A stretch of 61,763 nucleotides of DNA from an uncultured Clostridia bacterium. Its GTDB lineage: Bacteria > Bacillota > Clostridia > Christensenellales > UBA1242. The position numbers and the translations under genes were made by a program. Below are positions 28,118-57,712 of this stretch, in pieces. The DNA is taken from contig CANQEP010000002.1 of the NCBI GenBank assembly GCA_947595235.1, forward strand, positions 1-61,763, read 5' to 3'. Every line of letters starts with the position of its first letter. Position 1 is the first letter of the stretch. The notes below the pieces were generated by a model. It did not search any database, was not told where the DNA came from, and saw only the letters and a program-made list of their open reading frames with translations.

Positions 28118-28145
28118 AAAAAATGAGCGAATATGCTCATTTTTC
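28118..28145. terminator. Bidirectional terminator between the SSB-like and M16 genes
   Basis: AAAAAATGAGC-gaatat-GCTCATTTTT hairpin flanked by A and T runs. Confidence 0.7.
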
Positions 28146-31365: not shown

Positions 31366-34300
31366 TTAGAAGTTGATGTTGGTTAGCACTGTAAACAGCG
31401 TTGAATCGTCTGTTACCATCTGTACTATGCAGTCCACAATGCATATGACAGTTGCAGCAATAAGAACAGCGCTTGCACCAAGTGTCATACCGGTGATCAT
31501 TGCAGCCAAAACGGCTGAAAGAGCGACCACCAACGCATCGGCGAGTGGGATAGGAGCATAATCCAAAATTGCAGTCATTATTGGTCCGTCATCATGATGT
31601 ATGTCAACGCTACTAATCGCCGTTGTGCCTTTTTTAAAGTCGCTTGTTGGCGGTGTGAACGAAACGTGCAACAACCTTACATATGTGCCAGCGTATTTTT
31701 CTCTTCCATTGAACATACCAACAACGAAGTTTCTTACATCTTTTGTCCAATGGACATCTCTTTCTGGAGCACGGTTTACATTTTCAGGGTTGTTGTCATA
31801 GACACTTGTAAGAGCAGTTCCCATTTTAGATAATTTGGCATTCATTGTTGCGTGTCTGACATAGTCGTAGCCTTTGTTGGCAGTCCAAACTGGCAATTTT
31901 TTATTACCGAATAGGTATGATGTGTTTATTTGTGGGGCAGAGTGCTCTTGCAAAACACATTCAGAAATAACAAGGTCATCGGCGTTGGCAAAGTCACCAT
32001 ACATTGTTGGAGCAATACCTTTTTTATAGTAAGCAAATGTGTTGACAATATACTTAACTCTAAAGAAATTCGTTATTTGTTCTTTAGCATTATCATAACC
32101 GCCAACGGCTTCAACCCAATTTACTCCCTTTAACTGCATATATCTTTGGACTAAGACTGTAATTACTTTAGAAGTATTGCTCCAATTACCAACAGGAATG
32201 CAACTATAATACTCACTAAGTAATCCATAGAATATTTTAAATAAGTCTATATTCAAATTTGCAATAGCCCTTGCCGTTTCGTCGCCATCCCAATCAAGCA
32301 AGTTTCCACTATTTGATTTTTCCTCTTCATCGGAGGCTTTAACAAATTTAGCATTAAAGTTTATACTAGCCGAAGTGCCAACATTGCCAGTGTTTGCCAC
32401 ATTATAAACTTCGCCTCGTTCACCCGAATCTCCGGCGGCAAGTGACAACAAGTAAATTTGTGCATAACCGGCAGCTGCTCTAATTGATTCATTTGTGTCA
32501 TGTTCAGAAAGCCATTCCAAAATATTTATTAGGTATTGTCCATTTTGGATGACCGCAACGTAGTATGCTTGAATCTCTTCATCGTGTTCGTGAACATCTG
32601 ATTGAGCATTCTTATTTTTACAAACAGATGCAGTTATATCTTCTATGCTGCTTACTGAACTACGACCGTTGCCACTTAATTTTATATGTTGTGTTTTTCT
32701 TCCAGTTGATATTGACACTTCTGAGTCAATTGCCATGGCAAGTTTTTCCCATTTTATAACAACAGTAACATCAAGGTTGCCAAGGTCAAGGTCTGGGTTG
32801 CTGAGGTCAACATTGTCGTAGAGTCCAAGGTGGAAACCAGTGAAGTCTGTGCTGTTAAATTGCTTGTCGCTTTGAGTTGTTGGAATATAACCTTCTGGTG
32901 CGATACCCATTGGAATAATTGCTCCATCTGTCAGCGCGGTACCGCCACGGCCTTCGTTCTGGGTTATTCTGACTGATGGGAATCCACTTGAAGTTGCAGT
33001 GACCTTTATTTTTATTTGAACCACTCCTGTGTTTGGGTCAATAACAATTCTTGGAATATTCGAACTATCAAATTCTTTATTTTCGGTTTCTCCATGGATT
33101 CTTACTGTAAATAGACCCTCCATCAGCCTAATTCCAGTATCTGCAAACTCAATATAGTTATAGATATTGTCAAGTTTTGGAGTGCTTCCATTCATTTCAT
33201 ATTGGTTGCTATCAAAACCACTTGTATAAAGTTGATCAACGCCCGACCTGTCAGTTGACCTTTTGATTTGACTCATGTCGGTTGTTTTATAGAACGCCAT
33301 GAGACCTTCATCGTTGTTTGACCAATTTCCGCTGTAAGGGTAGTTCAAATAATTCGATGCTCCGCTTGGGTTCTTGTAATTTGTTTCTGTTATTATGTTT
33401 AATACAACTGCATCTGCACTTGATGATTTATTGATCACATATGTGAGTTTCCCGTTTTGTTTGCTATAGAGAGGGCTGACCAAACTTCTTGGCACTCTTG
33501 TTGGATATGCATATGATGTGTCACCATTTTCGCCAGTGCCAATTATAGAGTTACCCTTGTAGTCATTCATAACATAGACATATGGGTCGTTTTCTTTAAT
33601 TTCTACTTTTGTTGTGGTTGTTGCGCCATTTCTGTCATTAGATGCCAAAGTTGTGGCGTATTCGTATGTTCCGGCAGATGGGTTCTTCCAGCCTGGGGAC
33701 ATTCTTATGTAGTCGGCGTAGGTGAGGTAAGAGTCAGATATGGATTCAGATACTTGGTTATTATTCAAATCTCCAAATCCATAATTAGAATCTGCATAGA
33801 CATGGACGCCCAATATTTCTGCAAGGTTGATTGTTATTTCATATGACAGAGCGGCATAGTAAACACAAAGTTCAACATCATTATAGACATTGTAAAGGTA
33901 GATGTAACTTGACATCGCTGTGATAGGGAAGCCGTCCATTTCTTTTGTTTCTTCGTTATAGAAACTCATTATGTTTGGAGAGAGCTCGTCATATTTCAAA
34001 GGACGGGCATCTGAAGTGAATGCGCTGGTTGGCTGGTCTTCGGCTGTTGCAAATGCTTTGAAGCGATCATCTTCGTCAAACGAGTTGATGTACTCTTTTG
34101 ACGTTGCCCAACCGGCAAGTTGAATGTATGGGAAGTTGATGTTTTGGATCTTTCCGTCAACACCTTGTTGAATGAGAAGTGAGCCCTTGAACTTTGACGA
34201 AACAACTTCATTTGTTGTCATCTTTGATTTGCTTCTGTCCGCCTCGTTGAAGATGTCTGGGTGCTCTGCATCGTCGATAAATTCGTAACTCTTTATGGTT

Positions 34301-37300
34301 ACAATATATGGTCTTGCCTCGTAGTGAGCATAAATCTCGACACTGCCATAAAGTTGCAGGTCGGCAAAGGCGTATCGCTTTGAATCAATAATCTCATAAC
34401 GCGAAGCCCTTAGCACGGTGTAGGTGCTAAGAGAAGAGTTCATCTTTGCGCCACCAAACTCCAAGATGTTCAAGGTTGTGTGGTATAGTGAGTCGGCAAT
34501 AACAAAGCCTTGGAAGTAATAACCCTCTGGAATTTCTGCCCTCAATGAGATTTTTTCGCCCGCCTTGAATGAAAGGTTCTCTTCAAGTTTGGCGTAACTT
34601 GTAACAAGAGATTCTCCGGTGCTGTCGTATTTTGCATAATAGATATTGTCTTTTGTGAAGCGATTGTCGGTTATTTCTGGGAACGCGTTCTTAATGTAGT
34701 TTTCAAGGTCGGTATTGCTGTCGCCCGAAGGGTCATCTTGTTCAACATACTCTTTTCTTAAACGCCTTGACGATGCAACCAATGTGAGTTTTGGAACAAT
34801 GACAAATCTGAATGTCATTTCACCAAATATTCCCTTGGTGGAAGCATCCACCATCGCAGAGTAGAAGGTTGAGAAGGCAATGTTAATGTCGTTTTGACCA
34901 GAAGAGGTGTTATAGGTTCCGCGGTCAGTATAGAATCGGCTGGTGTATGAACTTGTTGACTGACCTTGCTTTAAGTTGACTTTGACAGTTGTGTTTTCTT
35001 CGGTGAAGTCCAAGGTGAAGCCGTCACCCTTTTTGTTGTCTCTTGACGACGACCTTATCGAAATTGATGCGTCGTCACCATGAGAAGAGTCAAGAGTGCC
35101 CGGTGTGTAGAGCACGGCAACTGGATATCTTCGGTTGAATGAAACACAATTGAAGCAGTCGGCAAGAATAGAAAGGTTCTTTGATGCCGTGAAACTTATT
35201 GACGTAAGGTCGCCTCTTTCAACAAGGTGGTTGAACACTTGAATAATAGGAGAGAACTTGCCGTCTAGGGCGTCTGCCCACCACTGACGAACATCTCCGC
35301 CCGCTTTCGCGTCATCAGTTGGCAAATTGTTGTCTCCAAAGGTTCTTCCAGCAAACAAATCACTGAGCATAACCTCGTCTGAACCAAGAAGAAGCACTGA
35401 ACCTCCAGTGTAATCGTTAAGGTCAATTCTGGCAGTTATTGAAGTGCCTTCTTCTGCCTTGTAACTTATGAGCGCGTTATTAAATGTGTGGTAATTAGAC
35501 GATGAAGCAATAGGTATGTACTCAACACTTTGAGTTGCGCCGTCACTCGAAATGCGAGTTAGACTCAAAACAATCTCGAACACGTCATTTTTGTTGTAGG
35601 CAAACTCAATCAAATAGAGGTTGACAGCGCTTGCGGTGATAACATCACCACTGAGCATATTTCTAAGGTTAATCTCAACTTCTGGGTTATAAATTGAGCC
35701 GAGAATTTCGCCATTTGCGTTGGTGTATTGCTTGAACCTCAAATAAACGTCGTTAATCTTGTTGCCAGTGCCCGCAGAAATGGTCTTTTCATAGAATCTG
35801 TCAACTCCCACGATTTCAAGAAGTGGGTCGGTTGTGTCTGACGAGAGACTAAAGTCCACTGCAGTAACTTTGAAAGTCGCTGATGCGTCGCAAAGGCTAA
35901 GAGGGTATGAGATAACAAGTTTGTTTCCGTCAAGTTTATATGAAAGGTAGCCAACATTAGTTGAAGTGCTGAATGCTTTGTAGGTCTGGATGTTTGCTGT
36001 TGGGGTTAATGTGGCACCGTCAATGCTGAGTGTGAAACTTGGAGAAACATATGATGCCTCAAAGACTACCTCTTTTACAATTTCTTCAAATACCGCATAG
36101 ATGATGATGTTGCCGTCGGTGTCGCGACTGAACGTGCTTCTTGATGGGTTAAAGTCGTCAAAGGTGAATGCGTAGTTTGAACTCTCGGTAACAAGTCTGC
36201 CACCCAAAGCGTATGAATCGGTGTAGTAGCCGATGAACTTGTAGTAATTGTTGGTGTCTTGTGCATAGATTGGGGTGGCAAGCGCGGTTTGATAGTTGAA
36301 TGCATCCATACCAGTTATTTTTCCAACCACAAGCCCCGATGCTCCAAGAGTGACAGTAAGGCCGTCTTTTGGAGCGTTATACAAAAGTTGTCCGTTTTCG
36401 GTCTTGTTGATGCCCTCAACATAGACTTTGACTTTGCCCTCGCTCTGCCTGTTGAGATGGATAGTTGCCTCAATAATACCAGTAAGGTCAATATCGTCTT
36501 CGGTAATAATGTTGCCCTCGAAGGTGAATGTGGAAGCACCATACTCATAAATGCTGGCAAACGAAGCATTTTGACTTATTATATAGTCAATAAATGCTTT
36601 CAATGAACTTAGATTTATGACTGAATCAAAGTAATAGAACATATTACTTGTTGAACTGTCGCCAATTTGCAAGTTGATTTTTACAACTGGGACATAGGTA
36701 ACATATATAGCAATATCCTTTCTTAGGCTCATTGTTATTTTTGCAGAAGTCAAGATGGTTCTTGAAAGGTCATCGCTCGCTGGTGAAGTTGTGTTGTTTC
36801 TGTCAATTGAAAGACTGCTAAGGAGAGCGCCATACTCACCGGCAGAAGCGGTCAACAAGTCAACTCCCAACGAAGGAATGTCGTCAAGAGAAGTAACACT
36901 ATTTATATCAAGAGCATAGACTTTGTCGATGACAAATCCATCATGTGCGTGGATATCAAAGACGTAGTTACTCAAATTCCTCTCAACCTTAACTTCGCCC
37001 TTTGAGTCGTCGTTTCCAACAAGTGTAGCGGTGTAGAGCGTGCTAAACCTTGCAGTGATGTATAGGGATGATGAAGACCTTGTTGTGTAGTAGTAGGTGT
37101 AAACAACATCTTTCGATATATAGGTTGAGTTGTTAACAATGCGATACTCAATAAATTCTGTGTTTTTGTCAAGGTCAAAACTTAGGGTTATCTTTGAGCC
37201 CGTTTTAACGTATTCAACATGGTCGTTGTTTTCCTCTGAAACTTCAAATTGCTTGTAGTTGCCAAGTTCGTCAAGGATGGTAACATAAAGAACACTGCCC

Positions 37301-40300
37301 GCGCCGTTTTCAACCGAGAATGTTGCTCTTGCGGTCTCTTCGATGTTGTTTATGTTAAGTTGAGATGCGCTTGAGGTTGAAGAAGAAACACTGGCATTGC
37401 TATTTATGACATTGTTAACAACATTGACGTTGGTTATAATTCCATATTTGTCAACTTGCACGTTATTTGAAACATCACCTGTCACAGAACCAATGTTGTT
37501 GGTTGAAGGACTAATGTTGTAGCCATAGAAAGCGTACAAAGTTGAATTAACTTGTGCACCTGCAAGGGTGGTCAATGTGCCATTCGAAGTTCCAAGACCG
37601 CCATATGCCGTGTCGGCACTATATGCAAGGTTGACCTCGTTATATGAACCAACAACGCCCACTCTATTGAAGTTGTTGGTGACTTTGACAATCTTAACAA
37701 ATCTTGCAATTAGGCTTGGGTAAACACCTGTGTATTTGCTAAGGTTAGCATTGTAGGAGTTGGTAATTTTAAGATAGCCAAGGCTACTGTCGCTGAGTTT
37801 TGTGTAGTAACCTATGAACAAGTAGTCGTCACCATTATATGATGTTACTTGGTTAACAACTGAGCCGGCAAAGGCGGAGAGAACAGTGGTTGTTGTTCCA
37901 TTAAAGAACTCATACGACCTTTCGGTTGAAACGGTGTAGTTGTTTTGGTCATCTTCAGGAACGAACTTCGCGATAAGAGATAAATTGCCGTTAACGTTAA
38001 ACTCCATGCTACTGTTATAGGCAACAGCAAAGTCAGAAGTTGCAACGCTTGTTCCGTCATAGACATACCAGCCGTCAAACACATAGGTTATTCCGTCACT
38101 TGCCGTGAACCTTGTTCGACTGTTATATCCAATGCTAAGAGTCACATTGTTTCCAACTTGAAGGCTACTATAATTCAAATACATTGAGTTTGCCGTGCTA
38201 AATGTACGTGTGTTGCCTCCTATATTCACAGAGAACGAACTTGGGTTAAGGCCGAGTTTGTTCTTTATCTCGTTGGCGTCACTAGTTCCAGCAACTGCAA
38301 CCCTAAGACTAAGAGTTACGTTTTTGACAAACTTAACCTCGATATCAAGGCTTGTTGTGCCGTTTGGAATATTAAATACGACATTTCTTGAAGATGTGAC
38401 ATAACTGCCGTTAGCATAAACGCCCATAAGAGTGTAGCCACTTATTACATTGACAGTGAACGAGATTGAAGATTGACCCTTCACAAATGAATATTGTTGA
38501 TTTGAAAGGTAACCACCTCTGCTTGTTGATGCGCCCTCGCCATCTAGGGTGGTGACGGTGTAGTTGATAGGGTAGACTCTTTCAAATGAAGCGGTAACAT
38601 GAACGCTTTCGCCCGAATTGATAATAATTGTGCAAACGGTGCCATAACTATTTGAGTTGACCGTTCCGGTCCTTTTAACGCCGTCAACGGTTATTGTGAA
38701 GCCCTTGAAAGAATATCCGTCAATGTTGTCCACAACAAGAATGAGCCTCTTTGAGGTGTCAAGTCTTCTTCCGCTAAACGATGTTTGGTTCTCGTCAAGC
38801 ACGATTTGCTCGAACCTGTTGATGACTTGACCATCGTTTTCTTCAATAAATGTGCCAAGGATGTTGAATTTCATGCCCGACTGAACACTTTCGCCAGCGC
38901 CTTCAACAACAATCTCGCCCTCAAGCGAAGCCGACGAAGAGAAGACAATGGTGTAGTTGATATTTTTGTTGTCAACAAGTTGAATTGTTGCCGTGTCATT
39001 TCGTGAGTAGAGCGCGCCATTTTCATAGATGCCGTGATATGTGTAGCCGTTTGGAGTGGTTACTGTTATTGTGAGAACGTCGCCCCTAATAAGTTGAATT
39101 TTTGCTTGACTAGAAACTGAGCCACTCGCTTTCACAAGTCCAGTATCAGATGAAGAAATTTCATAGTTGACGTCAAGTTCGCTAGCATCTGTTAAAGTGC
39201 CGTTGAGCACTTTTGAAAGTGTTATAAATGAGGCAGGAAGGAAGATTGCTTTTATGTCGATACTTGAAGCGTTGTTGAATGTTAACGTCTGTTTTAGGCC
39301 GTCATTCACAACATTTGTGGTTATGGATTTTGCAGTTGTGTTGAGGCTGGAAACATAGTATCTGTCGGACACAATATTAGATATCCAAACCTCAAAGGTT
39401 ATGCTTGTGTCTCTCTTTGCCAAGATGCCTTCAACCGAGAGTTTGCTACCAAGCGAAACGCTCCTTTGCGCGCCATAGATATCGGTGTAGGTCAACTTTA
39501 TGTCAAAGAATGACTTAAACAGGTCACTAAGAACGCCGTTATATGCGTATGTTCCAATGTCTTCATCAGTTGCCGTTATTTCTTTGCTTATGCTAATGAC
39601 GGTTGACGAAGTGTAGATTGCAGCAATCTTAACATAACCGCCCCTTGAACTGTCAATGGCTTGTCGAAGGTCTGTTAAAACGCCCAAAACTGCCTCTTTG
39701 CTGTTTGAAATGTGCTTGACAATGCTGTTTGAAGTGTCAACAACGCTCCACTCAACAAAGGAGTATGGATTGCTCTCGGCGGTGTCTGGCCTTGTCTCTT
39801 TCAAGGTGACTTGAGTTCCGGCTGGAATAGAGATGAACGACGACATTCCAGTTGAATAAGAGTAAACAGCGTTGTTGCCCGTTCTTAGGTCAAGGTAGGA
39901 AAGTTCAGCCATGAAGTTAGAGATATAGGAGTTCGTTTCGCTTATGACGCTTGAAACGTTAACAGTGACATATGGCACAAATCTTGCCTCGATAATGAGG
40001 TTGCTGTTAACTTCCTCAGAATATTCCGTGCCGTAAACAACGCGGTCATTGACGTCGACAGTTGAAACAATATTTCCGTTTATGAAGAAACCAACAAAGT
40101 AGTAGATAGTGCTGTTGATTGCAGAGAACAAAACAACAGTTCCATCTTGAACAACAAATTCATAGTTGGTCATCGATTTTCCGTTAACGGTGATTGCAAC
40201 ATAGTTTCCGTTTGTTAGAGTTGAGCCGTCAAGTTCCATGTTTATTGACGAGTAAAGCGTCTGGGTCAAAATGACGGTGCAACCGCGCGTGAAGTTGACA

Positions 40301-43300: not shown

Positions 43301-46300
43301 TGAACCAATATAAACACAGTGGTTTCAATGTCAAAATACATTGAGTTTAGCACCAACTTGCCATCAAGGTCTTCGTCATCTTCGGCGTTAACCCTATATG
43401 TTGGTGTTGTTGCCCTTTTGCCATTTCCAATTGCAGTTTCAGAACCAAAGCCATCGTCTTGGGCAAGTATAGCATACATATCCTTGCTGGCGTTGTCATA
43501 TGCATAGAATGTTCTCTTGATTCCATCAACAGTCCTTTCGTATGTATTGCTGAATATGCTACTTGTGCGGGCGGTCTTGGTCTCATCTTTATAAAGTCTC
43601 ATGTAGTCTTCGTCAAGTTTTGAAACTTGGTCGTCGCCTGGATATCCCATAGTGCCATTTGCATCGCGCGACGGACTTGTCTTGTTCACGCCAAGATTGT
43701 TGGTTCTTATAACCATTTGTTCATTAACAGTATCAATGTCGGCTTTTCGTGGGTCACTGTTGTTATAGTAAACGGCAAGGACGTCGATCCCTGAGTCTTC
43801 GGCTTCTTCTGCAAAGATGTATTGGTTATAAATCTCAATGAACTTCGCAACGTATCTAACATTCGAGTGAAGTTTGTGGATGATGAGTTTGTTTTCTTTA
43901 ACCTCAACATTGCCCGTTTCACGAACCCTATAGAAGTGTTCAGTCTCAACCGCAACGCCATCCTTGTCATAGCTGGTTTCCATGCGCCTAAATACTGGAT
44001 AGTCACTAAGAGTGTATGACTTTTCTCCGCTTGATGGAATATCCCTGTTTATGGCGTCAAAATGCGTCATTTCAATTGGGGTGTAGACATCGGTGTCGAC
44101 TGGACTTTGATGCATTCCTACGTCAAAGTAATAGTTATTCGCATAGTTTTTGTAAACACGAATATAGTTAGGCCTGCGAGAAGTTCCTTGGTTCTCGTTA
44201 ATGTTGATGTAGTATCCACGAACAGAATCAAGCATGTTGTCGGGAACAATGGCCTCGTTAATAAAGCCTTTGTCTGGGTCATATTGCGAATAATAGATAT
44301 ATGTTCCAGTGTCATCAAGTTCAACACAGAACTGAGTAACATAGAAGTATTGCCTCAAAATAGGGTTGTAGTATCCGTGCAAAACCTCATCAGAATAAAT
44401 ATATTCGGTGTTTTCAACCTTTTCGTCAGTGGTGTACCAAGTGTCGGTGTCTGCGTCATAAAGACACTTATACCAGCCTTCAACTCTGTAGCCCCTTGCT
44501 GGGGTGACTTCAAGCAAAACATACGCGTCACGGTCAATGTAAACCGACTTGAATTGCTGCGTTGAATATATGTTTCCATCTTTGTCTTTAACAAGTTCGC
44601 CGTCGTGCAATGAGCCGTTCACACTATAGCGATACTCGCCACCGATCACACCGTCTTCAAAGGTGGTCATTTCTGTAAAGATGCGCGTGTCTATATTTGC
44701 AACATGGTCTGTTCTTAGCGAGTCAATTAAGATTCCAGGTGAGTCCAAATCAATATTCCAAAATTCTTCATTGAACTCATCATATGCATCATTGCGGTTC
44801 TTAAAATCATCATAAAGGTCCTCAAACGCCTCTCGGCTATCAGAAGGGAACAACTCGTTGTTGTGGTGCATATTCCAAACATAGAGATACATGAGGAAGG
44901 TGAGCCCGCCAGTCACACTCTTTGTTGCATCATCGAATTGGCTCATGTCAAAGGCATAAAGGCTGTTGGCGCCTTTGTTATAGAAGAGTGGGGTACTCTT
45001 GTATCCTTGAGCAGCGTCTCCGCCAACAGTATCATAATAGAAGTATGAGTTGAACGCATAAGAAATCATCTCATTGAATTCTTCTGCCTTTACCACGCCT
45101 CTACCACTTTTATAATAGTAGTTTCCTTGGCCGTTATATGCGGCTTGCATTGCCGTGGTGTCGCCGTAAGAATACTCTGAGCCGTCAAAGTTAACTATGT
45201 TTCCTGAATAGTTGAACGCGTCATCCACGTGGGTGAGCATAACAACACCCGGCTTGTCTTTTTCAAATCTTTGAATGACATCTACTGGCCTAATTGCTGT
45301 TATGCGAGTTTTTGTTGCGTTATACTTAACTTGGAAATATAGCGTCAGATTGCCCGTTTCAAATGTATCATATTTTTGGTGGAACCTAATTGCAAAGATG
45401 TCGTCTCTAACCTCAAAGACAGGGTAGGCAGCAGAAGAGCCAACAATCTCGGTTTCATTTTTAAACTCGCCTGTGAAGTACAAGAATGCCGAACCATCGA
45501 TGTCGCCATAATAATAGCCTTCGCGACCACCATAGTTGGTTTTTAGGTATTCATATATATATAGGTCTCTTTCATCACGGTTGTCAACGTCTGCGCTGGC
45601 GCTACCAATGTCATACATAACATCAATACTGCCACCTTGGTTAAGTGCGCCGTCAAGAACTGCCGTTCCAATATCAATTGAGTAGACTCTTTGATAAACT
45701 GGCATAATAACATAGTAGCCCGCTTCGTTACTGGTAAAGCGCAAGATAGCATTTGTGAGAGAGTCGTTTTCAAGGGTGCTAATAACATTAGGATTATAGA
45801 AGATGACTTCGCTATTTCTTCTTTGATAAATCTTCCACTCTTTAAATCTATATATATAGTTATGGCCACCATCATCGCTGAGCGTGACAACTGGGCTTGC
45901 AAAAAACACTGCAGCCTCACGACCCGACAAGAAGTATGCGTCATGGCTGTCATAGGCATCCAAAAGCCCAAGTCCACGGTCAAGCCAATAACCATAGAGG
46001 TTGTTTGTTGCCTCGTCGATTACTTGAGAGGCCTTTGTTCGATAAGCATATGTAACGCCGCTGAAAAGTACCTCATCGTAGTTGAACATACTATTCTCGC
46101 TGAATTGCGCATCATAGTTGAAGTTCTCCATGCCATAGCACTTTATATTCACATCGGTGTCAATACCCGAATTGAGATATAGCGTGCCGTCAAGGCCTTG
46201 ATAGTAGGAGTGGATGTCATAGGTTCTAACTTCCTCAAGTGCAGTTGAAGACGAACTCCAAACATACACATCTTTTTCGTAGTCAAGGAGTTCATAAAGT

Positions 46301-49300
46301 CCAGCATCGTTCAATTCTTCTTCACTATCTGGATTGCCAACAAACCTATACAACTCATAGATATATTTCCCGTTTGAGGAAACATAATCTTTTAGGTATA
46401 TTCTGTGGCCAGCAATGGTATCATCAATTGCAACTTCTTGCAAAGAAAGTGTGTCCGAAACTTTGATGAACTTGCCGGTGGATTTATCCTTAATATAGGC
46501 AACGACTGGCTTGAGAGTTGTGCGGTCAAGAACCCAGAAAGATTTGTCCATGTAGTCGTTGAGTTCAAGGTTAACAAGCGTGTCTTTGAAGGCGTAGGTG
46601 TTAAAGTCATAGATATTGATGTCGTCTTCTTTCTCAATTGCCTCGCCAAGCACCTCAACATAGAATGCATTTTTGATGTCAAAGCAAAGGTTAACAATAG
46701 CGGCCTCATCCGCCTTGTGCCTTATTGAGAAGTAGAGAACTTGGTTAGGGTATGGAGGGCCCGCAAGCAAACTTACGCCAGGGAATCCCTCAATAACAAG
46801 GTTCTTGCTGGTGTAGTCAAGAGAATAGTATTGATTGAATTTTTGGTCATGAGATGCCAAAATGTATGCCTCATCCTCGCCATAGACATCATAGATGGAG
46901 AATCCCGGATAGATGACCGGAGAGTCAACGTCGTTGGTCTCGATATATTTTCCAAGCAAGGTTACCGAAACGCCAGTATTTGTCTTTTTGTTTGCCGACC
47001 TAACAAGGCTCGACTCGAAGTTTGGTATTGTTACCGTTGTTTGCTCGTAGTACAAGGTAAATGTTGCAGGCGTGCTTGTGCCTTGAAGGTTACCATTATT
47101 TTCAACCCTTATACGAGACTTAGTGCTAGGGTCAACAACATAACGAATGTTACCCGGCGTGCTGCTTGGGTCAACCAAATATCCATTATCGCAAACTGGA
47201 ACACCTTCGCTATACCAAGCCTTGCCACTACTTTCGTCAATGGTAAATGAAGGGACAGCGACATAGGTTGTTGCGTCAAAACTGAAAGTATTGCTAACAA
47301 TTGTCTTGCTTTCAGCCCCATAAGACTCTTTCAAATAGAGAGGGAACTCTGTCGCATTTTCTTTTTTCAAGTATGTTATGCTGTTTTCTTCTGAGCCTAC
47401 TTTTTCACCATCTTCAGGTCTAATAGCATAATATGTTGGAATTAGGAATGCACAATATCCAGTTTTTGTGCCTCCACGTTCACTTGGCGTATATTCAACC
47501 TTAGTTGTAGTTTTTGTGTCTGAGCCTCCACTTACATTGTGTTTCGTGTAACTGACAACTGAAACTCTGTCGCGGAAACTATTGCTGTTAGGGCCAACCA
47601 ATTCAAATGTGTAATAGACGCTTTCATCAATGCTAGCAGAATATTCATAGTAACGCATCCCACTGCCATCGTTAACTCCAATAAGTTGCATCGAACGTTT
47701 ATTTCCGTCCAAGGTGGTTGCATAAAGGGTATATGAAACTCTAATTAAGAAGTCAGTGCCAAGTTTTTTTGCTCCCGGCGAGAAGGTCTGTGTGCCCATG
47801 CTAATATTAGAATAGTAAACATTTTGCCATGTCGAAGTCGTCGTATCTTGATAGTGGCTGTTGAAGTAGTTGCTAGGCTTAAGCGAGGCTCCCACGTCAT
47901 AGGAAACGCGACCCGTTGAATCATAGAGAATATTGTCATCTTTAACATTATCGAATTTTGAGTCAACAACGCCATTTACATCTGATTGAATAAGTGTGCC
48001 AATCACTTCGCCACTAGACATTATGGTGCCATTGAATTCATGAGAAGAACCATCGCTTGTTTTATATGTATATTTGTTAACAACTTTTGTCTGGTCCTCG
48101 GTGTTCTCATCAGTTATATATTGTTTAACATAAAGTTCAATGGCTTCGCCAAGCGGACGAATATAATAGTAGCAAGAAGAAACAAGCCTTGCGCCCATAA
48201 TCTCACGATAAATATAGGCATCTCCACTGGTGGCAGTCAAAATGTCTGAGCCAAGCATGATACTTTTTTTATTATTGACAAGGTCATCAAAATTGGATAT
48301 TTGTTTGAAGTATAGGTTGTCTATTTCATCAAAAGTGATATTGCCGCTTGAGTCAGTCTTTTGAATGAACTGCTTTTTGGCAACAGGGGAGATATAGTAG
48401 AATTTGTTGCCACGCGCCTTAACATCATAGTAGACATATACTTCTTGAGACTCGGTATCATCTTTCGGATTGGTTTGTCTCATTTCAGTTGCATAGGCAG
48501 TAACAACAGCCGAAACTTCATTTGCCTCGCTCAAAAGAAGGTCGTCAATAACACTGCTTTGCTGAGTAAGAACTTCGCCATTTATTTTAATTTGCACATC
48601 AACTTTGGTTCCGTCAGATGTACTTGAACTTGGCGTTTCAACACTAATAGCACTTTCGTCCACTTTTGTGTATGTCAAAAGGTAGAAACTCTCTGGACCA
48701 CTATTTGGAATTTTGCGCGCGATTACAGTATATTTACCTTCATTTTCTACTTTTGTGGAGTTATAGTAATAAATCGTGCCACCGTTTGCACCACTTGCGT
48801 CACTCTTCACGCCGGCCTTGTGGCTGAACAAAAATACTTCGGTATCGCCTCCGTTTTCATATATGAGCGCCGTGCTGTTTTGGTTAACATGAACATTGCC
48901 AGATGTCAATGGTTGATTGTCAACCTTAAAGAACGAGTCAAGGTCGAGCGAAATATCCGCATCTGATTGGCTATAATTTTGGCTTGCGACATAAACTTTG
49001 CCATTCGCAGTTGTATAGTAAAGGGTTGGAGCAAAGTTGAGCGTCTCCATATTGTATCCAACAAGCACTGCATTTGAAGGCAACAAAATGGAGATTATAA
49101 CATTGGTTTGAATGTATCCAAACTCGTCCTCATAGGTGCTTATGCTCTTGATAATTTCATAGTCAACAAGCCCCTCCTGAAGTGGCATGATGCCAAGGCC
49201 CTCGATTTCATTTGCGCTACCTTTGTCTGTCGTTTGATACAAGTTGACAACAAGGTTGGTATCCTCGTTGTATTGAGTTCCAATAATGGCAATGTCTTGC

Positions 49301-51450
49301 CTGTCTGAGTAAAGAGTCTCTGTCGCTTTAAGAGACATGACCTTCTTTTCCACGCTATAGACAATATTTTTGTCCATGAGAGGGGAGTGGAAATTAAATG
49401 GCATCAACGATGACACCGTGGCAGTTCCTTCACCCATCGTGGCATTGTCCATCTTTTCAAAGTAGACATAGTCGTTCCACTCAAGACCCGAAACGCTAAA
49501 ATATGAGCCATTTTGCTCAATCTTTATTGGCTGAGTTCTATACTGCTGACCAATATCACTAAAATCATCCTTGATAGAATAGGAAGTGTCATTGTTCGGC
49601 CTTAAAGCGGTTATAAATTCGCCATTATTGAAGACACTAACATCAACAAATTTTAAGTGTTGGTCTGCGCCTGTAAAGAAGTTGTCGCCCGCAAAGAATG
49701 TTCCGCTAACAACAAACCCTCTAACTTTCGCCCAGTTGGCATAGAACTTGGTTGTGTGGAGTTTTGCGTGAGAGGTAACAACAATTTCGCTGATGACCGC
49801 CACTCTTTCAAGTTGATGGGTGCTGACGTTTTCTTCTTTCACCTCATAAATGTGGTCATAAACATAACTGGAAAGTGGTTTTGTCAGTTCGTTTGAAGGG
49901 TAGTGCATCATCTTTTGAGTCTCATTGTATTTGGCGTCAATTGATGTGTACAAATTTGGGTCTTGCGACCTTGCAATAGGAATGACGTCTTTGGTTAAAA
50001 CGTCATTTAAATAATCACTATAACTTCCAACAAAGTCACTGTTAAAGTTGCTGTATCTATAAAAGTCGTCTGTAATTCCCGTTGCACCGCCAGATGGCTT
50101 TTGACCGCCTTTTGGCAAAGTTTCCTCAATAACATTACTGTTTTCAGCATAGGTGTTCGTTGTCCAACTTTGAAGGGCATAGTTGTAGTCGGTCGTATAC
50201 TTACTATAGCGTTGAACAACCACTTGTCTGCCTTCTGGGAACGCACCCGTCAAACTCTTGACATACTCTTGATTGGTCTTGCTGTCGTATGCGCTTTGGC
50301 TAGAGAAGAAGTAGTATTTATCAGCATCATAAACAAGCCCGCCATAATCGGTCTCGATAGAGTTTGTGCTCCTTGCCGAGAAGGAGAGGGTATAGGCTTC
50401 GAAACTGACCGTGCTTGAATAAACAGACTCACCACGCTCACCTTGTAGGTTAGCGGGGAGTGCCTTGACTTTGAGATATCTGTTTTTAACGCCCTCTTCA
50501 AGGCGAGGGTTGAACCTTATAACATAGTTGCCGTCGCCGTCAACAAAGTATGTCATGTAGTCCTTTGGGCATTCAGTAAAGCCAGTAAGTCCCGCACCCG
50601 CAGTGGATGCCATACCGTTTCTGTAATAGAACTTGAAAACAGACTCACTCGTTGTGCTGAGTGGGTTTGTTAGCAAATTGTCCTCGGTCTCACTAGGCAT
50701 ATCAAATGTGACGCCACTGTCAAGAACCACCCTAAAAGTGTAGTACCTTCCGTCAACAACAACCTCGTAGTCTGGGAACTGCAAAACACTTTTGCTGGTT
50801 TTATATTTTTGTGCGACCTCATCAAAGCCCGTATAGAGCCTTATGATGCTGTTTTCTGTTTCTGTTCCGGTCGCCTCTTTGAAGCCATAAAAGTGTGGGG
50901 TGGAGTCAAGGTCACCAGAACCATTTGGCCAAGCAACAGAATCCTCAGAGCCAAGACTATAGTGCGCGATGATTTCTTCTTTTTTATTTGTGTAGATGGG
51001 CAGTACTTTTTGTTCTGAAGCGCCCGAGGCATAGTTCAGATAATACTTGAAGATATAATCGCTTTTGTCGCCATTAAAACTGCTAGAAAAAACGTCTACG
51101 GTATAGAAGTTGGTCTTGTAATAGATTTGGTCGTGCTCAATATCTGTGCCTGAAGTGTAATAGTAAGAGAGTGGCCATGTGAATGAGCCAGAATTTTCGT
51201 CGATAATATGAGCGCTGTCAATGCTATTTCCCTCAAGCGAATAAGGATTGAACGTAACAACAGGAGAGGCCAGCCTAAGCCTTCCCGACGAGTCATATGT
51301 TGCGTTTGTTGATGGCTCTTCGTCATTGAACAGTTTGCAGGCAGAAAAAGTGAACAGCGAAATAATCATCACAAAAAGCAATGAAAAAAGTGCCAAGAGT
51401 TTTGATTTCGTTTGTTTTTTAGCATTTGTAAGGCTCATACCAACTCCCAT
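31366..51450 (-). CDS. Giant (6,694 aa) cell-surface protein: lipoprotein-type signal, long non-repetitive beta-rich region, many degenerate Listeria-Bacteroides (InlB B-repeat/Flg_new-like) modules, distinct C-terminal domain, C-terminal TM helices
   Basis: A single 20,085-nt open frame. The N-terminus has K-rich n-region, a hydrophobic core and FSAC (Cys38). Recurrent modules have a G(Y/F)x(F/L)xG(W/Y)(Y/F) core and end in (A/V)x(F/Y). The last ~60 aa are strongly hydrophobic. An alternative start is the ATG at 51438, preceded by GGAG. Confidence 0.9.
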   Translation of the reverse strand: MGVGMSLTNAKKQTKSKLLALFSLLFVMIISLFTFSACKLFNDEEPSTNATYDSSGRLRLASPVVTFNPYSLEGNSIDSAHIIDENSGSFTWPLSYYYTSGTDIEHDQIYYKTNFYTVDVFSSSFNGDKSDYIFKYYLNYASGASEQKVLPIYTNKKEEIIAHYSLGSEDSVAWPNGSGDLDSTPHFYGFKEATGTETENSIIRLYTGFDEVAQKYKTSKSVLQFPDYEVVVDGRYYTFRVVLDSGVTFDMPSETEDNLLTNPLSTTSESVFKFYYRNGMASTAGAGLTGFTECPKDYMTYFVDGDGNYVIRFNPRLEEGVKNRYLKVKALPANLQGERGESVYSSTVSFEAYTLSFSARSTNSIETDYGGLVYDADKYYFFSSQSAYDSKTNQEYVKSLTGAFPEGRQVVVQRYSKYTTDYNYALQSWTTNTYAENSNVIEETLPKGGQKPSGGATGITDDFYRYSNFNSDFVGSYSDYLNDVLTKDVIPIARSQDPNLYTSIDAKYNETQKMMHYPSNELTKPLSSYVYDHIYEVKEENVSTHQLERVAVISEIVVTSHAKLHTTKFYANWAKVRGFVVSGTFFAGDNFFTGADQHLKFVDVSVFNNGEFITALRPNNDTSYSIKDDFSDIGQQYRTQPIKIEQNGSYFSVSGLEWNDYVYFEKMDNATMGEGTATVSSLMPFNFHSPLMDKNIVYSVEKKVMSLKATETLYSDRQDIAIIGTQYNEDTNLVVNLYQTTDKGSANEIEGLGIMPLQEGLVDYEIIKSISTYEDEFGYIQTNVIISILLPSNAVLVGYNMETLNFAPTLYYTTANGKVYVASQNYSQSDADISLDLDSFFKVDNQPLTSGNVHVNQNSTALIYENGGDTEVFLFSHKAGVKSDASGANGGTIYYYNSTKVENEGKYTVIARKIPNSGPESFYLLTYTKVDESAISVETPSSSTSDGTKVDVQIKINGEVLTQQSSVIDDLLLSEANEVSAVVTAYATEMRQTNPKDDTESQEVYVYYDVKARGNKFYYISPVAKKQFIQKTDSSGNITFDEIDNLYFKQISNFDDLVNNKKSIMLGSDILTATSGDAYIYREIMGARLVSSCYYYIRPLGEAIELYVKQYITDENTEDQTKVVNKYTYKTSDGSSHEFNGTIMSSGEVIGTLIQSDVNGVVDSKFDNVKDDNILYDSTGRVSYDVGASLKPSNYFNSHYQDTTTSTWQNVYYSNISMGTQTFSPGAKKLGTDFLIRVSYTLYATTLDGNKRSMQLIGVNDGSGMRYYEYSASIDESVYYTFELVGPNSNSFRDRVSVVSYTKHNVSGGSDTKTTTKVEYTPSERGGTKTGYCAFLIPTYYAIRPEDGEKVGSEENSITYLKKENATEFPLYLKESYGAESKTIVSNTFSFDATTYVAVPSFTIDESSGKAWYSEGVPVCDNGYLVDPSSTPGNIRYVVDPSTKSRIRVENNGNLQGTSTPATFTLYYEQTTVTIPNFESSLVRSANKKTNTGVSVTLLGKYIETNDVDSPVIYPGFSIYDVYGEDEAYILASHDQKFNQYYSLDYTSKNLVIEGFPGVSLLAGPPYPNQVLYFSIRHKADEAAIVNLCFDIKNAFYVEVLGEAIEKEDDINIYDFNTYAFKDTLVNLELNDYMDKSFWVLDRTTLKPVVAYIKDKSTGKFIKVSDTLSLQEVAIDDTIAGHRIYLKDYVSSNGKYIYELYRFVGNPDSEEELNDAGLYELLDYEKDVYVWSSSSTALEEVRTYDIHSYYQGLDGTLYLNSGIDTDVNIKCYGMENFNYDAQFSENSMFNYDEVLFSGVTYAYRTKASQVIDEATNNLYGYWLDRGLGLLDAYDSHDAYFLSGREAAVFFASPVVTLSDDGGHNYIYRFKEWKIYQRRNSEVIFYNPNVISTLENDSLTNAILRFTSNEAGYYVIMPVYQRVYSIDIGTAVLDGALNQGGSIDVMYDIGSASADVDNRDERDLYIYEYLKTNYGGREGYYYGDIDGSAFLYFTGEFKNETEIVGSSAAYPVFEVRDDIFAIRFHQKYDTFETGNLTLYFQVKYNATKTRITAIRPVDVIQRFEKDKPGVVMLTHVDDAFNYSGNIVNFDGSEYSYGDTTAMQAAYNGQGNYYYKSGRGVVKAEEFNEMISYAFNSYFYYDTVGGDAAQGYKSTPLFYNKGANSLYAFDMSQFDDATKSVTGGLTFLMYLYVWNMHHNNELFPSDSREAFEDLYDDFKNRNDAYDEFNEEFWNIDLDSPGILIDSLRTDHVANIDTRIFTEMTTFEDGVIGGEYRYSVNGSLHDGELVKDKDGNIYSTQQFKSVYIDRDAYVLLEVTPARGYRVEGWYKCLYDADTDTWYTTDEKVENTEYIYSDEVLHGYYNPILRQYFYVTQFCVELDDTGTYIYYSQYDPDKGFINEAIVPDNMLDSVRGYYININENQGTSRRPNYIRVYKNYANNYYFDVGMHQSPVDTDVYTPIEMTHFDAINRDIPSSGEKSYTLSDYPVFRRMETSYDKDGVAVETEHFYRVRETGNVEVKENKLIIHKLHSNVRYVAKFIEIYNQYIFAEEAEDSGIDVLAVYYNNSDPRKADIDTVNEQMVIRTNNLGVNKTSPSRDANGTMGYPGDDQVSKLDEDYMRLYKDETKTARTSSIFSNTYERTVDGIKRTFYAYDNASKDMYAILAQDDGFGSETAIGNGKRATTPTYRVNAEDDEDLDGKLVLNSMYFDIETTVFILVQVKAEADLTIHSLGLNSNYTIEPIFAPTEDFIIYNKTAPQSEKVDYVYYIFRVTYNRDPENEYASYIVHPNRGESMAFDILAGNYLDFYNNYFVTYIVDRETREYSFDEGVDYVLHDDGLSLGLGAGSRTSRFLKQLKDNNVITQSIYDKYNDKDLRFKNISELLDAMNKDMKDPDCLKVGYVTIKPGTYDKDYAGDIDSDKLSKSEDIFAALKAIYKIDESGNVVKNESDIPLRQFKNPYLIWSGQQNFINLSTIPVYTYTVQAVTLDDTSPTINIDANGRAIMQSSSVKQFTLKNSVYASAGINGRTFLGSATEISLTDPFVYFNPTSITDFYGTTAIKFYKRFDNLEYANDNTNTTILPDLPFASNTMVLFSGTEEVDNSDPNADRYEFAGWYEQKYDRDTNKWSPLALMSTSIDIPYMSLATADTVILAVYKKVVNVTMTYNKDEGTVDLNGSLDSLGHALSVEDDGTKVTIKGDFYFDAELPLTIVPNGGYRFDNLTYNDGILFNPALDSSAVYYSEFSDAYPNGVQRSYYSVRLNAMLRMILPIKEALFRSTDTTDVEMNINFKKIVLVYINVENYVYGTGSAYTYTFSGFDFGLYSVHGSTVHEYARTNGRESGSRQFVTNSDSTQNDVVCAVNGTTLYMYGYFDYDISGELVIVTFKDEYCTTSVNEWYINGYTTATNSSSDEGDGSTKNVFDTHIYKDATGKEVNDEFTITFLYDTGDPNIDNYNGGDRFALKESNSVFYMKAEVVTETQDLVITHSFADSIDSAAIAGYPAGTMGYNADVYSMLSYSGDYYQDGSIVSTNGSFVVKNKQVLSFGKDALISIAVNSEYVLIGSGASRRLYVFVGWYRLGFNIQEGVSTAEFIQKNPVLQYRPATGAYEAKYIRAYEVDNTNVNETYGSVSYVTQQHLPNAGITDSTITHTVYGYYDDGHDAFNYALSGATITLQATPNNGYFILEDSLKVEDQNGSPVEFTTTEIDGVRNLSFVATKNVKVYVNFTRGCTVILTQTLYSSINMELDGSTLTNGNYVAITVNGKSMTNYEFVVQDGTVVLFSAINSTIYYFVGFFINGNIVSTVDVNDRVVYGTEYSEEVNSNLIIEARFVPYVTVNVSSVISETNSYISNFMAELSYLDLRTGNNAVYSYSTGMSSFISIPAGTQVTLKETRPDTAESNPYSFVEWSVVDTSNSIVKHISNSKEAVLGVLTDLRQAIDSSRGGYVKIAAIYTSSTVISISKEITATDEDIGTYAYNGVLSDLFKSFFDIKLTYTDIYGAQRSVSLGSKLSVEGILAKRDTSITFEVWISNIVSDRYYVSSLNTTAKSITTNVVNDGLKQTLTFNNASSIDIKAIFLPASFITLSKVLNGTLTDASELDVNYEISSSDTGLVKASGSVSSQAKIQLIRGDVLTITVTTPNGYTYHGIYENGALYSRNDTATIQLVDNKNINYTIVFSSSASLEGEIVVEGAGESVQSGMKFNILGTFIEENDGQVINRFEQIVLDENQTSFSGRRLDTSKRLILVVDNIDGYSFKGFTITVDGVKRTGTVNSNSYGTVCTIIINSGESVHVTASFERVYPINYTVTTLDGEGASTSRGGYLSNQQYSFVKGQSSISFTVNVISGYTLMGVYANGSYVTSSRNVVFNIPNGTTSLDIEVKFVKNVTLSLRVAVAGTSDANEIKNKLGLNPSSFSVNIGGNTRTFSTANSMYLNYSSLQVGNNVTLSIGYNSRTRFTASDGITYVFDGWYVYDGTSVATSDFAVAYNSSMEFNVNGNLSLIAKFVPEDDQNNYTVSTERSYEFFNGTTTTVLSAFAGSVVNQVTSYNGDDYLFIGYYTKLSDSSLGYLKITNSYNANLSKYTGVYPSLIARFVKIVKVTNNFNRVGVVGSYNEVNLAYSADTAYGGLGTSNGTLTTLAGAQVNSTLYAFYGYNISPSTNNIGSVTGDVSNNVQVDKYGIITNVNVVNNVINSNASVSSSTSSASQLNINNIEETARATFSVENGAGSVLYVTILDELGNYKQFEVSEENNDHVEYVKTGSKITLSFDLDKNTEFIEYRIVNNSTYISKDVVYTYYYTTRSSSSLYITARFSTLYTATLVGNDDSKGEVKVERNLSNYVFDIHAHDGFVIDKVYALDINSVTSLDDIPSLGVDLLTASAGEYGALLSSLSIDRNNTTSPASDDLSRTILTSAKITMSLRKDIAIYVTYVPVVKINLQIGDSSTSNMFYYFDSVINLSSLKAFIDYIISQNASFASIYEYGASTFTFEGNIITEDDIDLTGIIEATIHLNRQSEGKVKVYVEGINKTENGQLLYNAPKDGLTVTLGASGLVVGKITGMDAFNYQTALATPIYAQDTNNYYKFIGYYTDSYALGGRLVTESSNYAFTFDDFNPSRSTFSRDTDGNIIIYAVFEEIVKEVVFEASYVSPSFTLSIDGATLTPTANIQTYKAFSTSTNVGYLSYKLDGNKLVISYPLSLCDASATFKVTAVDFSLSSDTTDPLLEIVGVDRFYEKTISAGTGNKINDVYLRFKQYTNANGEILGSIYNPEVEINLRNMLSGDVITASAVNLYLIEFAYNKNDVFEIVLSLTRISSDGATQSVEYIPIASSSNYHTFNNALISYKAEEGTSITARIDLNDYTGGSVLLLGSDEVMLSDLFAGRTFGDNNLPTDDAKAGGDVRQWWADALDGKFSPIIQVFNHLVERGDLTSISFTASKNLSILADCFNCVSFNRRYPVAVLYTPGTLDSSHGDDASISIRSSSRDNKKGDGFTLDFTEENTTVKVNLKQGQSTSSYTSRFYTDRGTYNTSSGQNDINIAFSTFYSAMVDASTKGIFGEMTFRFVIVPKLTLVASSRRLRKEYVEQDDPSGDSNTDLENYIKNAFPEITDNRFTKDNIYYAKYDSTGESLVTSYAKLEENLSFKAGEKISLRAEIPEGYYFQGFVIADSLYHTTLNILEFGGAKMNSSLSTYTVLRASRYEIIDSKRYAFADLQLYGSVEIYAHYEARPYIVTIKSYEFIDDAEHPDIFNEADRSKSKMTTNEVVSSKFKGSLLIQQGVDGKIQNINFPYIQLAGWATSKEYINSFDEDDRFKAFATAEDQPTSAFTSDARPLKYDELSPNIMSFYNEETKEMDGFPITAMSSYIYLYNVYNDVELCVYYAALSYEITINLAEILGVHVYADSNYGFGDLNNNQVSESISDSYLTYADYIRMSPGWKNPSAGTYEYATTLASNDRNGATTTTKVEIKENDPYVYVMNDYKGNSIIGTGENGDTSYAYPTRVPRSLVSPLYSKQNGKLTYVINKSSSADAVVLNIITETNYKNPSGASNYLNYPYSGNWSNNDEGLMAFYKTTDMSQIKRSTDRSGVDQLYTSGFDSNQYEMNGSTPKLDNIYNYIEFADTGIRLMEGLFTVRIHGETENKEFDSSNIPRIVIDPNTGVVQIKIKVTATSSGFPSVRITQNEGRGGTALTDGAIIPMGIAPEGYIPTTQSDKQFNSTDFTGFHLGLYDNVDLSNPDLDLGNLDVTVVIKWEKLAMAIDSEVSISTGRKTQHIKLSGNGRSSVSSIEDITASVCKNKNAQSDVHEHDEEIQAYYVAVIQNGQYLINILEWLSEHDTNESIRAAAGYAQIYLLSLAAGDSGERGEVYNVANTGNVGTSASINFNAKFVKASDEEEKSNSGNLLDWDGDETARAIANLNIDLFKIFYGLLSEYYSCIPVGNWSNTSKVITVLVQRYMQLKGVNWVEAVGGYDNAKEQITNFFRVKYIVNTFAYYKKGIAPTMYGDFANADDLVISECVLQEHSAPQINTSYLFGNKKLPVWTANKGYDYVRHATMNAKLSKMGTALTSVYDNNPENVNRAPERDVHWTKDVRNFVVGMFNGREKYAGTYVRLLHVSFTPPTSDFKKGTTAISSVDIHHDDGPIMTAILDYAPIPLADALVVALSAVLAAMITGMTLGASAVLIAATVICIVDCIVQMVTDDSTLFTVLTNINF

Positions 51451-51805: not shown

Positions 51806-52501
51806 ATGACAAACACACTAAAAATGCAAAGCATAACGGAAGAAAATCATGTTCAAAAGGAAGAGATTGAATCTTCAAAAAAACGCAAAATTCAACAAGA
51901 AAACATGAAAAAATGCACAAAAAACACCAATTTTTGCCAAGAAAGTTGCAAAAATAAACTTTTTCTGGGCGATGAAAATCTGCAAAAAAAGTTGTTTGTC
52001 AAAGTGCTTTTGTCTGCAAACAAGACCATTCCAAACACCATTGCCATTCTTGACAAGATAATAGAGGAAAGAGCGTCAACTTGCATATCGTCGTCACTTA
52101 TCTATTCAAGTGCTCTTTCAACCTATGGCGAGATTGACCATGTTATTGACCTTACTGCAAGAAAGGACAAACTGCTAAACATCTATGTTATGGGCAAAGA
52201 ACTTCTTGAGTCTCTTTCGGGCGACCTAAAAGACATCGCTGTTTTGAGGTATCAAAAAAGATACCAAGTTGACGACATTGTCCTTGCTCTAAATTCCTCT
52301 CAAAGAACAATATACAGAAAATTGAAACTCATTGACGAAAAGTTGGTGCGCTACATGAACCTCAACAACTGGAACATAAGTTTTCTTGAAGACCAAATCA
52401 GTAGCGAGCCGTGGCTAAAATCTCTCTATGAGAAAAAGTATAATGAAGAACTTGTCAATATGTCACGCGCGGAGTGCAAAAAGAAAAATCCTAGTGCCTA
52501 G
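51806..52501 (+). CDS. Sigma-70 region-4-like HTH protein (ArpU/RinA-like late-regulator architecture)
   Basis: 231 aa. The C-terminal part DIAVLRYQKRYQVDDIVLALNSSQRTIYRKLKLIDEKL matches the region-4 / SxRTxYRxK pattern. The N-terminal ~60 codons overlap a copy of the A-rich element, so the start is uncertain. Confidence 0.5.
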   Translation: MTNTLKMQSITEENHVQKEEIESSKKRKIQQENMKKCTKNTNFCQESCKNKLFLGDENLQKKLFVKVLLSANKTIPNTIAILDKIIEERASTCISSSLIYSSALSTYGEIDHVIDLTARKDKLLNIYVMGKELLESLSGDLKDIAVLRYQKRYQVDDIVLALNSSQRTIYRKLKLIDEKLVRYMNLNNWNISFLEDQISSEPWLKSLYEKKYNEELVNMSRAECKKKNPSA

Positions 52502-53575: not shown

Positions 53576-53746
53576 GACCCAACTATACAACCTTTTTAAT
53601 GCACATCAAAGGTTGATTTTGCAAACATTTTGAACTTTTTGATGTTTAAGAGTGATTTTTGTTGAAAAGCACTTTTTTCTTACAATTTGGCAAAGTGAAG
53701 CCATTTTTCACAAATTTTTATCAAATTTTGCATTTTTGGAGGTTTT

Positions 53747-57710: not shown

Positions 57711-57712
57711 AT

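Follow-up and report, generated by a model that had tools for sequence, protein, structure and literature searches.

Proteins of more than 5,000 amino acids (aa) are rare in bacteria. At the surface of staphylococci, Ebh/Embp are proteins of megadalton size in which a Sec signal at the N-terminus precedes a very large extracellular rod and a membrane-spanning segment at the C-terminus; their role is in the envelope or in adhesion. A survey of bacterial huge proteins, which left out viral proteomes, found non-ribosomal peptide synthetases (NRPS) and polyketide synthases (PKS) to be the most frequent architectures (PMC11573180), and a preprint on giant genes describes bacterial metagenome proteins above 5,000 aa from the phylum Omnitrophota (bioRxiv 10.1101/2023.11.21.568195). 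Here, we analyzed a 61,763-bp stretch of DNA from an uncultured Clostridia bacterium (the entire NCBI contig CANQEP010000002.1, hereafter the window), which holds a single open reading frame (ORF) of 6,694 codons. Its predicted product, the giant protein, would share the traits of Ebh/Embp named above and resembles the Omnitrophota proteins, which belong to another phylum, in its length, whereas the NRPS and PKS architectures of the survey are absent from it. We tentatively read it, with a probability of about 0.45, as a cell-surface fiber or coat lipoprotein that is carried on a prophage-derived element and may act as a lysogenic-conversion factor.

The giant open reading frame and its homologues

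The giant ORF extends over positions 31366-51450 on the minus strand and comprises 6,694 codons plus a stop codon, beginning with ATG. Its translation has no internal stop, as a preliminary description of this DNA had stated, and with the base composition of the window, a run of 6,694 codons without a stop would arise by chance with a probability of about 1e-170. The same description had called the DNA AT-rich, which holds in a weaker form: GC content across the ORF is 0.38-0.44, like that of the remaining window, making the DNA moderately AT-rich only. The N-terminus reads MGVGMSLTNAKKQTKSKLLALFSLLFVMIISLFTFSAC and carries Cys38. Since a GGAG lies 5 nt 5′ of Met5 (51438) and a public gene call of 6,690 aa (P0004, 100% identical) begins at this residue, Met5 is the likely real start (6,690 codons), and the lipobox Cys is then probably residue 34 of the precursor. 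The predicted mature protein has ~6,657 aa, ~742 kDa and a pI of 4.6; Ser, Thr, Val, Tyr, Asn and Asp are abundant and Cys is scarce (0.3%). Promoter and terminator scans of the window gave signals no better than chance.

The size of the ORF is not explained by repeats. No tandem arrays were detected in its DNA using TRF, dispersed DNA matches are at chance level only, and a BLASTP comparison of the protein with itself yielded zero matches, so that the earlier judgement against a repeat expansion stands. Neither LPXTG nor the RTX motif GGxGxD occurs in the protein (0 each), and SLH or choline-binding Pfam matches were likewise not obtained, in agreement with what had been noted by eye for LPXTG, SLH and choline-binding motifs.

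The preliminary description had named syntenic orthologues in related genomes as a check, and these were found. Besides the window's product, the family has five full-length members (L019 with 6,357 aa, P0005 with 6,492, P0006 with 6,639, P0007 with 6,417 and P0017 with 7,328) together with at least nine partial members, which stem from gut metagenomes of human, sheep and roe deer. Searching with the N-terminal 1,200 aa returned three relatives among public gene calls. A scan of species-representative genomes found seven loci in metagenome-assembled genomes (MAGs) of uncultured Clostridia or 'Thermoanaerobacterales'; the MAGs originate from the human gut, the colon of sheep and the caecum of roe deer, one being of unstated source. 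One of these loci (L010) is matched by tblastn in a single frame to residues 34-4591 at 39% identity; L012, L014 and L016 behave alike, and in these four as well as in L013 and L015 the reading frame is open right up to the end of the available DNA. From a scan of metagenomes with a mid-gene profile we obtained L018 and L019, the latter with a complete ORF that matches residues 12-6671. An exhaustive HMMER scan with the last 1,200 aa against 1.84 billion cluster representatives found 13 sequences, among them the window's product and the full-length proteins of 6,492, 6,639 and 6,417 aa; one cluster also holds the 7,328-aa member. This protein, the largest of the family, is encoded on a 112-kb contig (JGI/IMG) and shares both lipobox and C-terminal domain with the family. 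When the C-terminal 1,200 aa served as query, alone or as a 3-sequence profile, word-indexed searches gave no matches, an exact look-up of four window proteins gave no records, and a literature search found no account of the giant protein family. Judged from these sequence searches, the giant protein belongs to a small new family in uncultured gut Clostridia.

The proteins from the window, P0005, P0006, P0007 and L019 are collinear over ~5,800 alignment columns at 32-44% identity. For the close strains L018 and L019 we calculated a dN of 0.006 and a dS of 0.042, i.e. a dN/dS of 0.15, and values between 0.03 and 0.31 in all bins of 500 codons. These comparisons bear on the possibility that the ORF is an artefact of assembly or annotation, either a chimeric or a non-coding open frame. 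The window is a contig from a metagenome assembly, and one homologue has a frame change. The full-length collinear ORFs, however, come from independent assemblies (NCBI, ENA, JGI and Logan), which together with the dN/dS of 0.15 and the chance expectation given above effectively refutes an artefact and leaves it a negligible probability. The alignments thus indicate that the giant ORF is a real, conserved gene under selection. The frame change mentioned is a single one in L007 (JGI), near its position 15058 and corresponding to about window residue 1875; there the homologue is called as two genes of 1,700 aa and at least 3,753 aa, which could reflect a sequencing error or a true split.

Anatomy of the giant protein

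The giant protein begins with a signal peptide and lipobox (51337-51450; this and all following parts of the protein are encoded on the minus strand), residues 1-38 consisting of a K-rich n-region, a hydrophobic core and LFTFSA-C. In all 14 homologous N-termini, 3-7 Lys/Arg are followed by a hydrophobic stretch of roughly 20 residues. The lipobox Cys is found in 14 of 14 as well, at position 30-39 and in the contexts FSAC, FTAC, FAAC, LTSC, FVGC or LVGC. The pattern tested was [LVI][ASTVI][GAS]-C, the Cys being invariant; compared with Leu, Phe is a less canonical residue at -3. The lipobox that the preliminary description had seen around Cys38 is thus a conserved lipoprotein signal, and lipidation of the giant protein is predicted.

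Residues 39-2200 (44851-51336) form an N-terminal region that matches no known family. It contains conserved islands of 50-59% identity at residues 301-400, 701-800, 1501-1600 and 1801-2000. The central region (residues 2275-5690, 34381-44628) carries ~11 diverged modules similar to InlB B-repeats, also known as Listeria-Bacteroides repeats. These modules are ~75 aa each, all lie within residues 2295-5686 and are spaced by unassigned sequence. The motif [FYW]x[FLIV]xG[WFY] occurs 12 times in the giant protein compared with 1.7 expected occurrences, and a module HMM built from orthologous segments detected ten ~75-aa modules in the window protein. With Flg_new_2 (Pfam), the C-terminal half reaches 31.6 bits (cut-off 23.6), and TIGR02543 gives 26.4 bits on the giant protein (cut-off 20.95). 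A single stretch, residues 4108-4172 (38935-39129), exceeds Pfam's own threshold for Flg_new_2 by itself (25.6 bits against 23.6) and coincides with the module-HMM match at 4109-4177. Cross-matches between tile HMMs are confined to residues 2220-5160, with none before residue ~2220 or after ~5160, and HMM-HMM comparison of 120-aa tiles starting at residues 1-1261 using hhalign gave no match at ≥70% probability.

The modules make up ~15% of the giant protein and the other ~5,600 residues match nothing. Outside the InlB-type modules there was no match to a Pfam, NCBIfam, PHROG or PDB family, the first ~2,200 and last ~1,000 residues being without matches altogether. Sequence searches of the PDB with single sequences and with a profile returned chance L6 matches or nothing, and Foldseek against the PDB gave generic Ig-like matches only (best E = 0.08). 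The view of the preliminary description that most of the protein has no recognizable family is therefore upheld. Its further proposal, that the protein is built of highly diverged beta modules, is only partly supported: ~11 InlB-B-repeat-like modules are demonstrable, and both AlphaFold2 models are too poor to show folds.

Towards the C-terminus, residues 5860-6630 (31561-33873) form a conserved domain of mixed beta and helical character with the motifs NPSAG, GFPxV, DLVxxxxLxEH, WTADKGYxY and KYAGTYxR. No Pfam or PDB match was obtained for this domain, also when a profile was used as query. It is followed by a hydrophobic hairpin (residues 6631-6681, 31408-31560) and a short conserved tail ending in NINF. 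The hairpin reaches a maximum Kyte-Doolittle value of 2.49 in the window and at least 1.6, the transmembrane threshold, in 12 of 14 homologues, including moderate values of 1.85-1.87 in L018 and L019. The membrane anchor that had been proposed from the last residues is accordingly only partly supported, the hairpin being strong in the window and several homologues.

Operon partners, phage genes and the chromosomal boundary

The preliminary description was silent on the minus strand, the phage context, the operon partners and the conserved family. The second gene of the operon encodes p630 (29462-31354, minus strand) and starts 12 nt past the stop codon of the giant ORF. p630 has a signal or transmembrane (TM) segment, a large ectodomain and a C-terminal TM segment, and is 28% identical to the orthologues at the same position in L018 and L019. 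The third gene (28137-29465, minus strand) overlaps p630 by 4 nt and encodes a 442-aa M16 (insulinase-type) metallopeptidase with an HxxEH motif and without a signal peptide. The order giant gene, p630, M16 is found in the window, L018 and L019. By gene order and spacing, the giant gene heads a conserved three-gene operon with p630 and M16. SH3_3 gave a sub-threshold match on p630 and on its L019 orthologue.

A protease gene within the operon is one of the features expected if the giant protein were a delivered effector similar to polymorphic toxins, in which a filament made of the long N-terminal and central region presents an active, membrane-inserting or enzymatic C-terminal end and p630 or M16 serves for processing or protection. 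The conserved C-terminal domain of ~800 aa with fixed motifs (DLVxxxxLxEH, WTADKGY), followed by a hydrophobic helical hairpin, would suit such a protein. Against this, the C-terminal domain is collinear among the homologues, about as diverged as the remainder and not swapped, and there are no Rhs/YD, hemagglutinin-repeat, PT-domain or toxin Pfam matches. A small immunity-like gene is absent downstream, where p630 and M16 are located instead, and M16 lacks a signal peptide. We consider an effector unlikely.

On the other side of the giant gene lie phage genes. A regulator resembling sigma-70 region 4 and phage late activators (51806-52501, plus strand) is transcribed divergently from the giant ORF and matches phrog_36; further matches are weak (Sigma70_r4_2/DUF722 on orthologues, TIGR02937). 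It is followed by p355 (52523-53590), a double-anchored membrane protein present in all loci and encoded on the minus strand like the giant gene, and by the large terminase (TerL, 53747-55175, plus strand). The genes for a P22-like portal, a 232-aa protein and the major capsid protein (MCP; together 55767-59611, plus strand) open a podovirus-like head module, which is cut off by the end of the contig. The order regulator-p355-TerL-portal-MCP beside the giant gene was found in 7 of 7 loci with upstream DNA available, one of which is an IMG/VR contig (L001) carrying the N-terminus of a giant-gene homologue. With this constant linkage, the giant gene may rank among the largest phage-associated genes known. 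With p355 between the regulator and TerL, the phage genes and those on the strand of the giant gene are interleaved. p630 and p355 are built alike: an N-terminal signal/TM segment is followed by an ectodomain containing motifs of the GY[IV] type and by a TM segment at the C-terminus. Both may bind the wall as partners of the giant protein.

The MCP has its closest cultured relatives among actinophage podoviruses (27-31% identity). Between loci, TerL, portal and MCP are 72-81% identical compared with 28-50% for the giant protein, p355, regulator, p630 and M16. The giant gene and its membrane partners p355 and p630 (28-40%) thus diverge far faster than the capsid genes, which fits surface or host-interaction genes. 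The giant protein, p630, p355 and M16 had no PHROG matches. We compared the head-region DNA (blastn) and 3,000 residues from either end of the giant protein (tblastn; residues 3001-3694 were not queried) with 50,697 phage records and found no match. Scans of IMG/VR with the C-terminal 1,000 aa of the giant protein and with N- and C-terminal profiles found nothing, and a tail-protein scan returned previously known contigs only.

Given the adjoining head genes, the giant protein could also be part of the virion or the infection machinery, such as a giant fiber or an ejection protein. The distantly related actinophage podoviruses have one large gene, with a 1,743-aa product in phage Shocker, and hydrophobic helices are usual in ejection proteins. 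The invariant Sec/lipoprotein signal, by contrast, targets the protein to the external side of the host membrane, remote from where capsids assemble, and the giant gene and the late genes are transcribed in opposite directions. Neither PHROG nor the tblastn comparison with phage records gave a match, and the size would be beyond that of a plausible internal protein in the head of a podovirus of ~45-60 kb. This makes a virion protein very unlikely. The conserved lipoprotein signal, an acidic composition rich in Ser/Thr/Tyr and the modules of surface-repeat type speak against a virion RNA polymerase of the crAss-like or N4-like type; polymerase motifs were not scanned.

The left 24 kb of the window are ordinary chromosome with genes for Obg, PheS/T, DeoC, TsaB, a Mur ligase, Ddl, MurG, GyrB and GyrA, which rules out a huge phage with host-like genes. 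Directly after gyrA, a 746-aa protein is encoded (24149-26389). It comprises ~500 aa of acidic Glu/Lys/Ser-rich low-complexity sequence as well as one TM segment, and its C-terminal part is Ig-like (Big_3, sub-threshold). T-box leaders are common upstream of pheS in Firmicutes; no tRNA gene or Rfam family was detected at threshold in the 61.8 kb, the region upstream of pheS (2588) included.

The boundary between this chromosomal DNA and the block of M16, p630, giant gene and phage genes is set by ssb (27386-28108, plus strand), coding for a 240-aa single-stranded DNA-binding protein (SSB) with two OB folds (NF004476, 297 bits). The gene is convergent with M16, their stop codons being separated by 28 nt with one hairpin in between, and it is the conserved left neighbor of the block in the window, L018 and L019. 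The best 'phage' match of the SSB is MT835503.1 (L021; 'UNVERIFIED: Bacteriophage sp.', 49,328 bp). In this record, host genes of the window (TsaB, hydrolase, Mur ligase, Ddl, WYL regulator, PDA and SSB) recur in collinear order, and SSB is followed by ORFs that, judged from their translations, are yggS-, lspA-, rluD-, clpP- and clpX-like. The record contains nothing of M16, p630, giant gene or phage block. MT835503.1 therefore appears to be misclassified, i.e. a bacterial chromosome fragment in a phage collection, which rules out SSB as a phage gene. Since L021 is collinear yet lacks the block, PDA to SSB is host DNA and the block begins directly after ssb.

Several observations weigh against a surface lipoprotein carried by a prophage-derived element. 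The first group concerns the protein. Length and segment order are conserved among the homologues, unlike in classical adhesin stalks. The hairpin is below the transmembrane threshold in P0006 (1.23) and P0014 (1.17), so that for these 2 of 14 homologues the C-terminal anchor of the preliminary description is sub-threshold. Neither profile nor structure searches identified an adhesive or enzymatic domain in the giant protein. AlphaFold2 gave a pLDDT of 49.9 for the C-terminal 835 aa with 12 sequences, too poor for folds, and a mean pLDDT of 34.1 for residues 1480-2480, including the module at 2295-2362, with 5 sequences. The second group concerns the element. Relative to L001, L007 and L014, the window's terminase is split by a frame-shifting deletion of 20 nt near 54789, so this genome may carry a defective phage module next to the intact 20-kb ORF; the deletion could also be an assembly error. 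No integrase or att site was seen, the contig ending inside the head module. The block occupies the same site beside ssb in distant genomes. Furthermore, the SSB is 78% identical between the window and L018/L019, a divergence similar to that of the capsid genes, and the whole block could thus be vertically inherited chromosome and not a mobile phage.

These points lead to the alternative that the giant protein is an envelope megaprotein of the host that merely neighbors a phage-derived cluster. The M16-p630-giant operon would then be chromosomal and lineage-specific, and the head module an old domesticated or cryptic prophage fixed alongside without functional link. An SSB identity within the range of TerL, portal and MCP (72-81%) is as expected for co-inherited DNA, and the missing PHROG matches of the giant protein, p630, p355 and M16 are consistent with host genes. 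On the other hand, the phage module adjoins the giant gene in 7 of 7 loci although the gene itself is only 30-40% identical, the intervening regulator resembles a phage late activator, p355 is interleaved between regulator and TerL, and L021 lacks both parts together. Because SSB and capsid genes diverge alike, the ssb site is fixed, the terminase is broken and no integrase or att site was seen, we rate this alternative as a real possibility, albeit a less probable one than a surface lipoprotein carried by a prophage-derived element. That the 20-kb gene is a true phage gene, belonging to one family of temperate podovirus-like phages that infect gut Clostridia, is doubtful to a similar degree.

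Proposed role and comparison with known systems

Topology, mobile-element membership and function of the giant protein are proposed here from sequence features. In the model that we favor, Sec would export the giant chain and the invariant Cys would be lipidated, while the C-terminal hairpin would re-insert into the membrane in most homologues. A long fiber or loop of ~6,600 acidic Ser/Thr/Asn/Tyr-rich residues, part of which consists of the InlB-B-repeat-like modules, would then be located outside the cell. The gene would be co-transcribed with those for the wall-facing membrane protein p630 and the cytoplasmic M16 peptidase. Together with the late-activator-like regulator and p355, the operon would represent the left, non-structural arm of a podovirus-like prophage or phage-derived element inserted beside the host ssb. 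The giant protein would not be part of the virion and may instead remodel or coat the envelope of the lysogen, resulting in receptor masking against other phages or in attachment in the gut.

If the giant gene is a true phage gene, the temperate phages carrying it would spend one-third or more of their genome on one non-repetitive lipoprotein of 0.74 MDa. The lysogen would display this lipoprotein on its surface, an M16 peptidase and a membrane protein dedicated to it being encoded alongside, and it could constitute a novel form of lysogenic conversion or a novel barrier to superinfection. To our knowledge, it would also be the largest phage-encoded protein described. A gene traveling with phage would change the view of how much coding capacity small phages devote to modifying the host surface, and would suggest that uncultured bacteria abundant in the gut possess a surface structure not studied before. 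Moreover, the large unique regions are a reservoir of folds beyond current profile libraries and shallow-alignment AlphaFold2.

Described phage-encoded surface proteins differ from the giant protein in several respects. Ltp of phage TP-J34, Llp of T5 and PblA/PblB of the Streptococcus mitis phage SM1 are encoded by temperate phages and act at the host surface, as we propose for the giant protein, with which they share no sequence similarity. The exclusion lipoproteins Ltp and Llp have 100-200 aa and are ~40 times smaller, and PblA/B are virion proteins resembling tail fibers which, unlike the giant protein, have no lipobox. Polymorphic toxins (CdiA/Rhs/WapA) are characterized by a variable tip, an immunity gene and Rhs/FHA repeats, none of which was found here. 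Proteins with InlB B-repeats (Flg_new, Flg_new_2, TIGR02543) have the GYxFxGW signature in common with ~11 modules of the giant protein, the difference being that in the latter such modules account for only ~15% of the length. Repeat-built adhesins such as Ebh, SiiE, LapA/RTX and Bap consist of near-identical tandem repeats; the giant protein has none, and its homologues have 6,357-7,328 aa. Ebh in particular is chromosomal and has near-identical FIVAR/GA repeats and a YSIRK signal, whereas the giant protein has no repeats at the DNA or BLASTP level, a lipobox and a linkage to phage genes. Across divergent gut Clostridia, the family retains ~6,400-7,300 mostly unique residues in constant order, and its genes are physically linked to those for the phage head. 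Overall, a giant anchored surface protein, as predicted here, is of a known type, from which the family itself, the absence of near-identical repeats, the putative lipobox anchor and the phage linkage set it apart.

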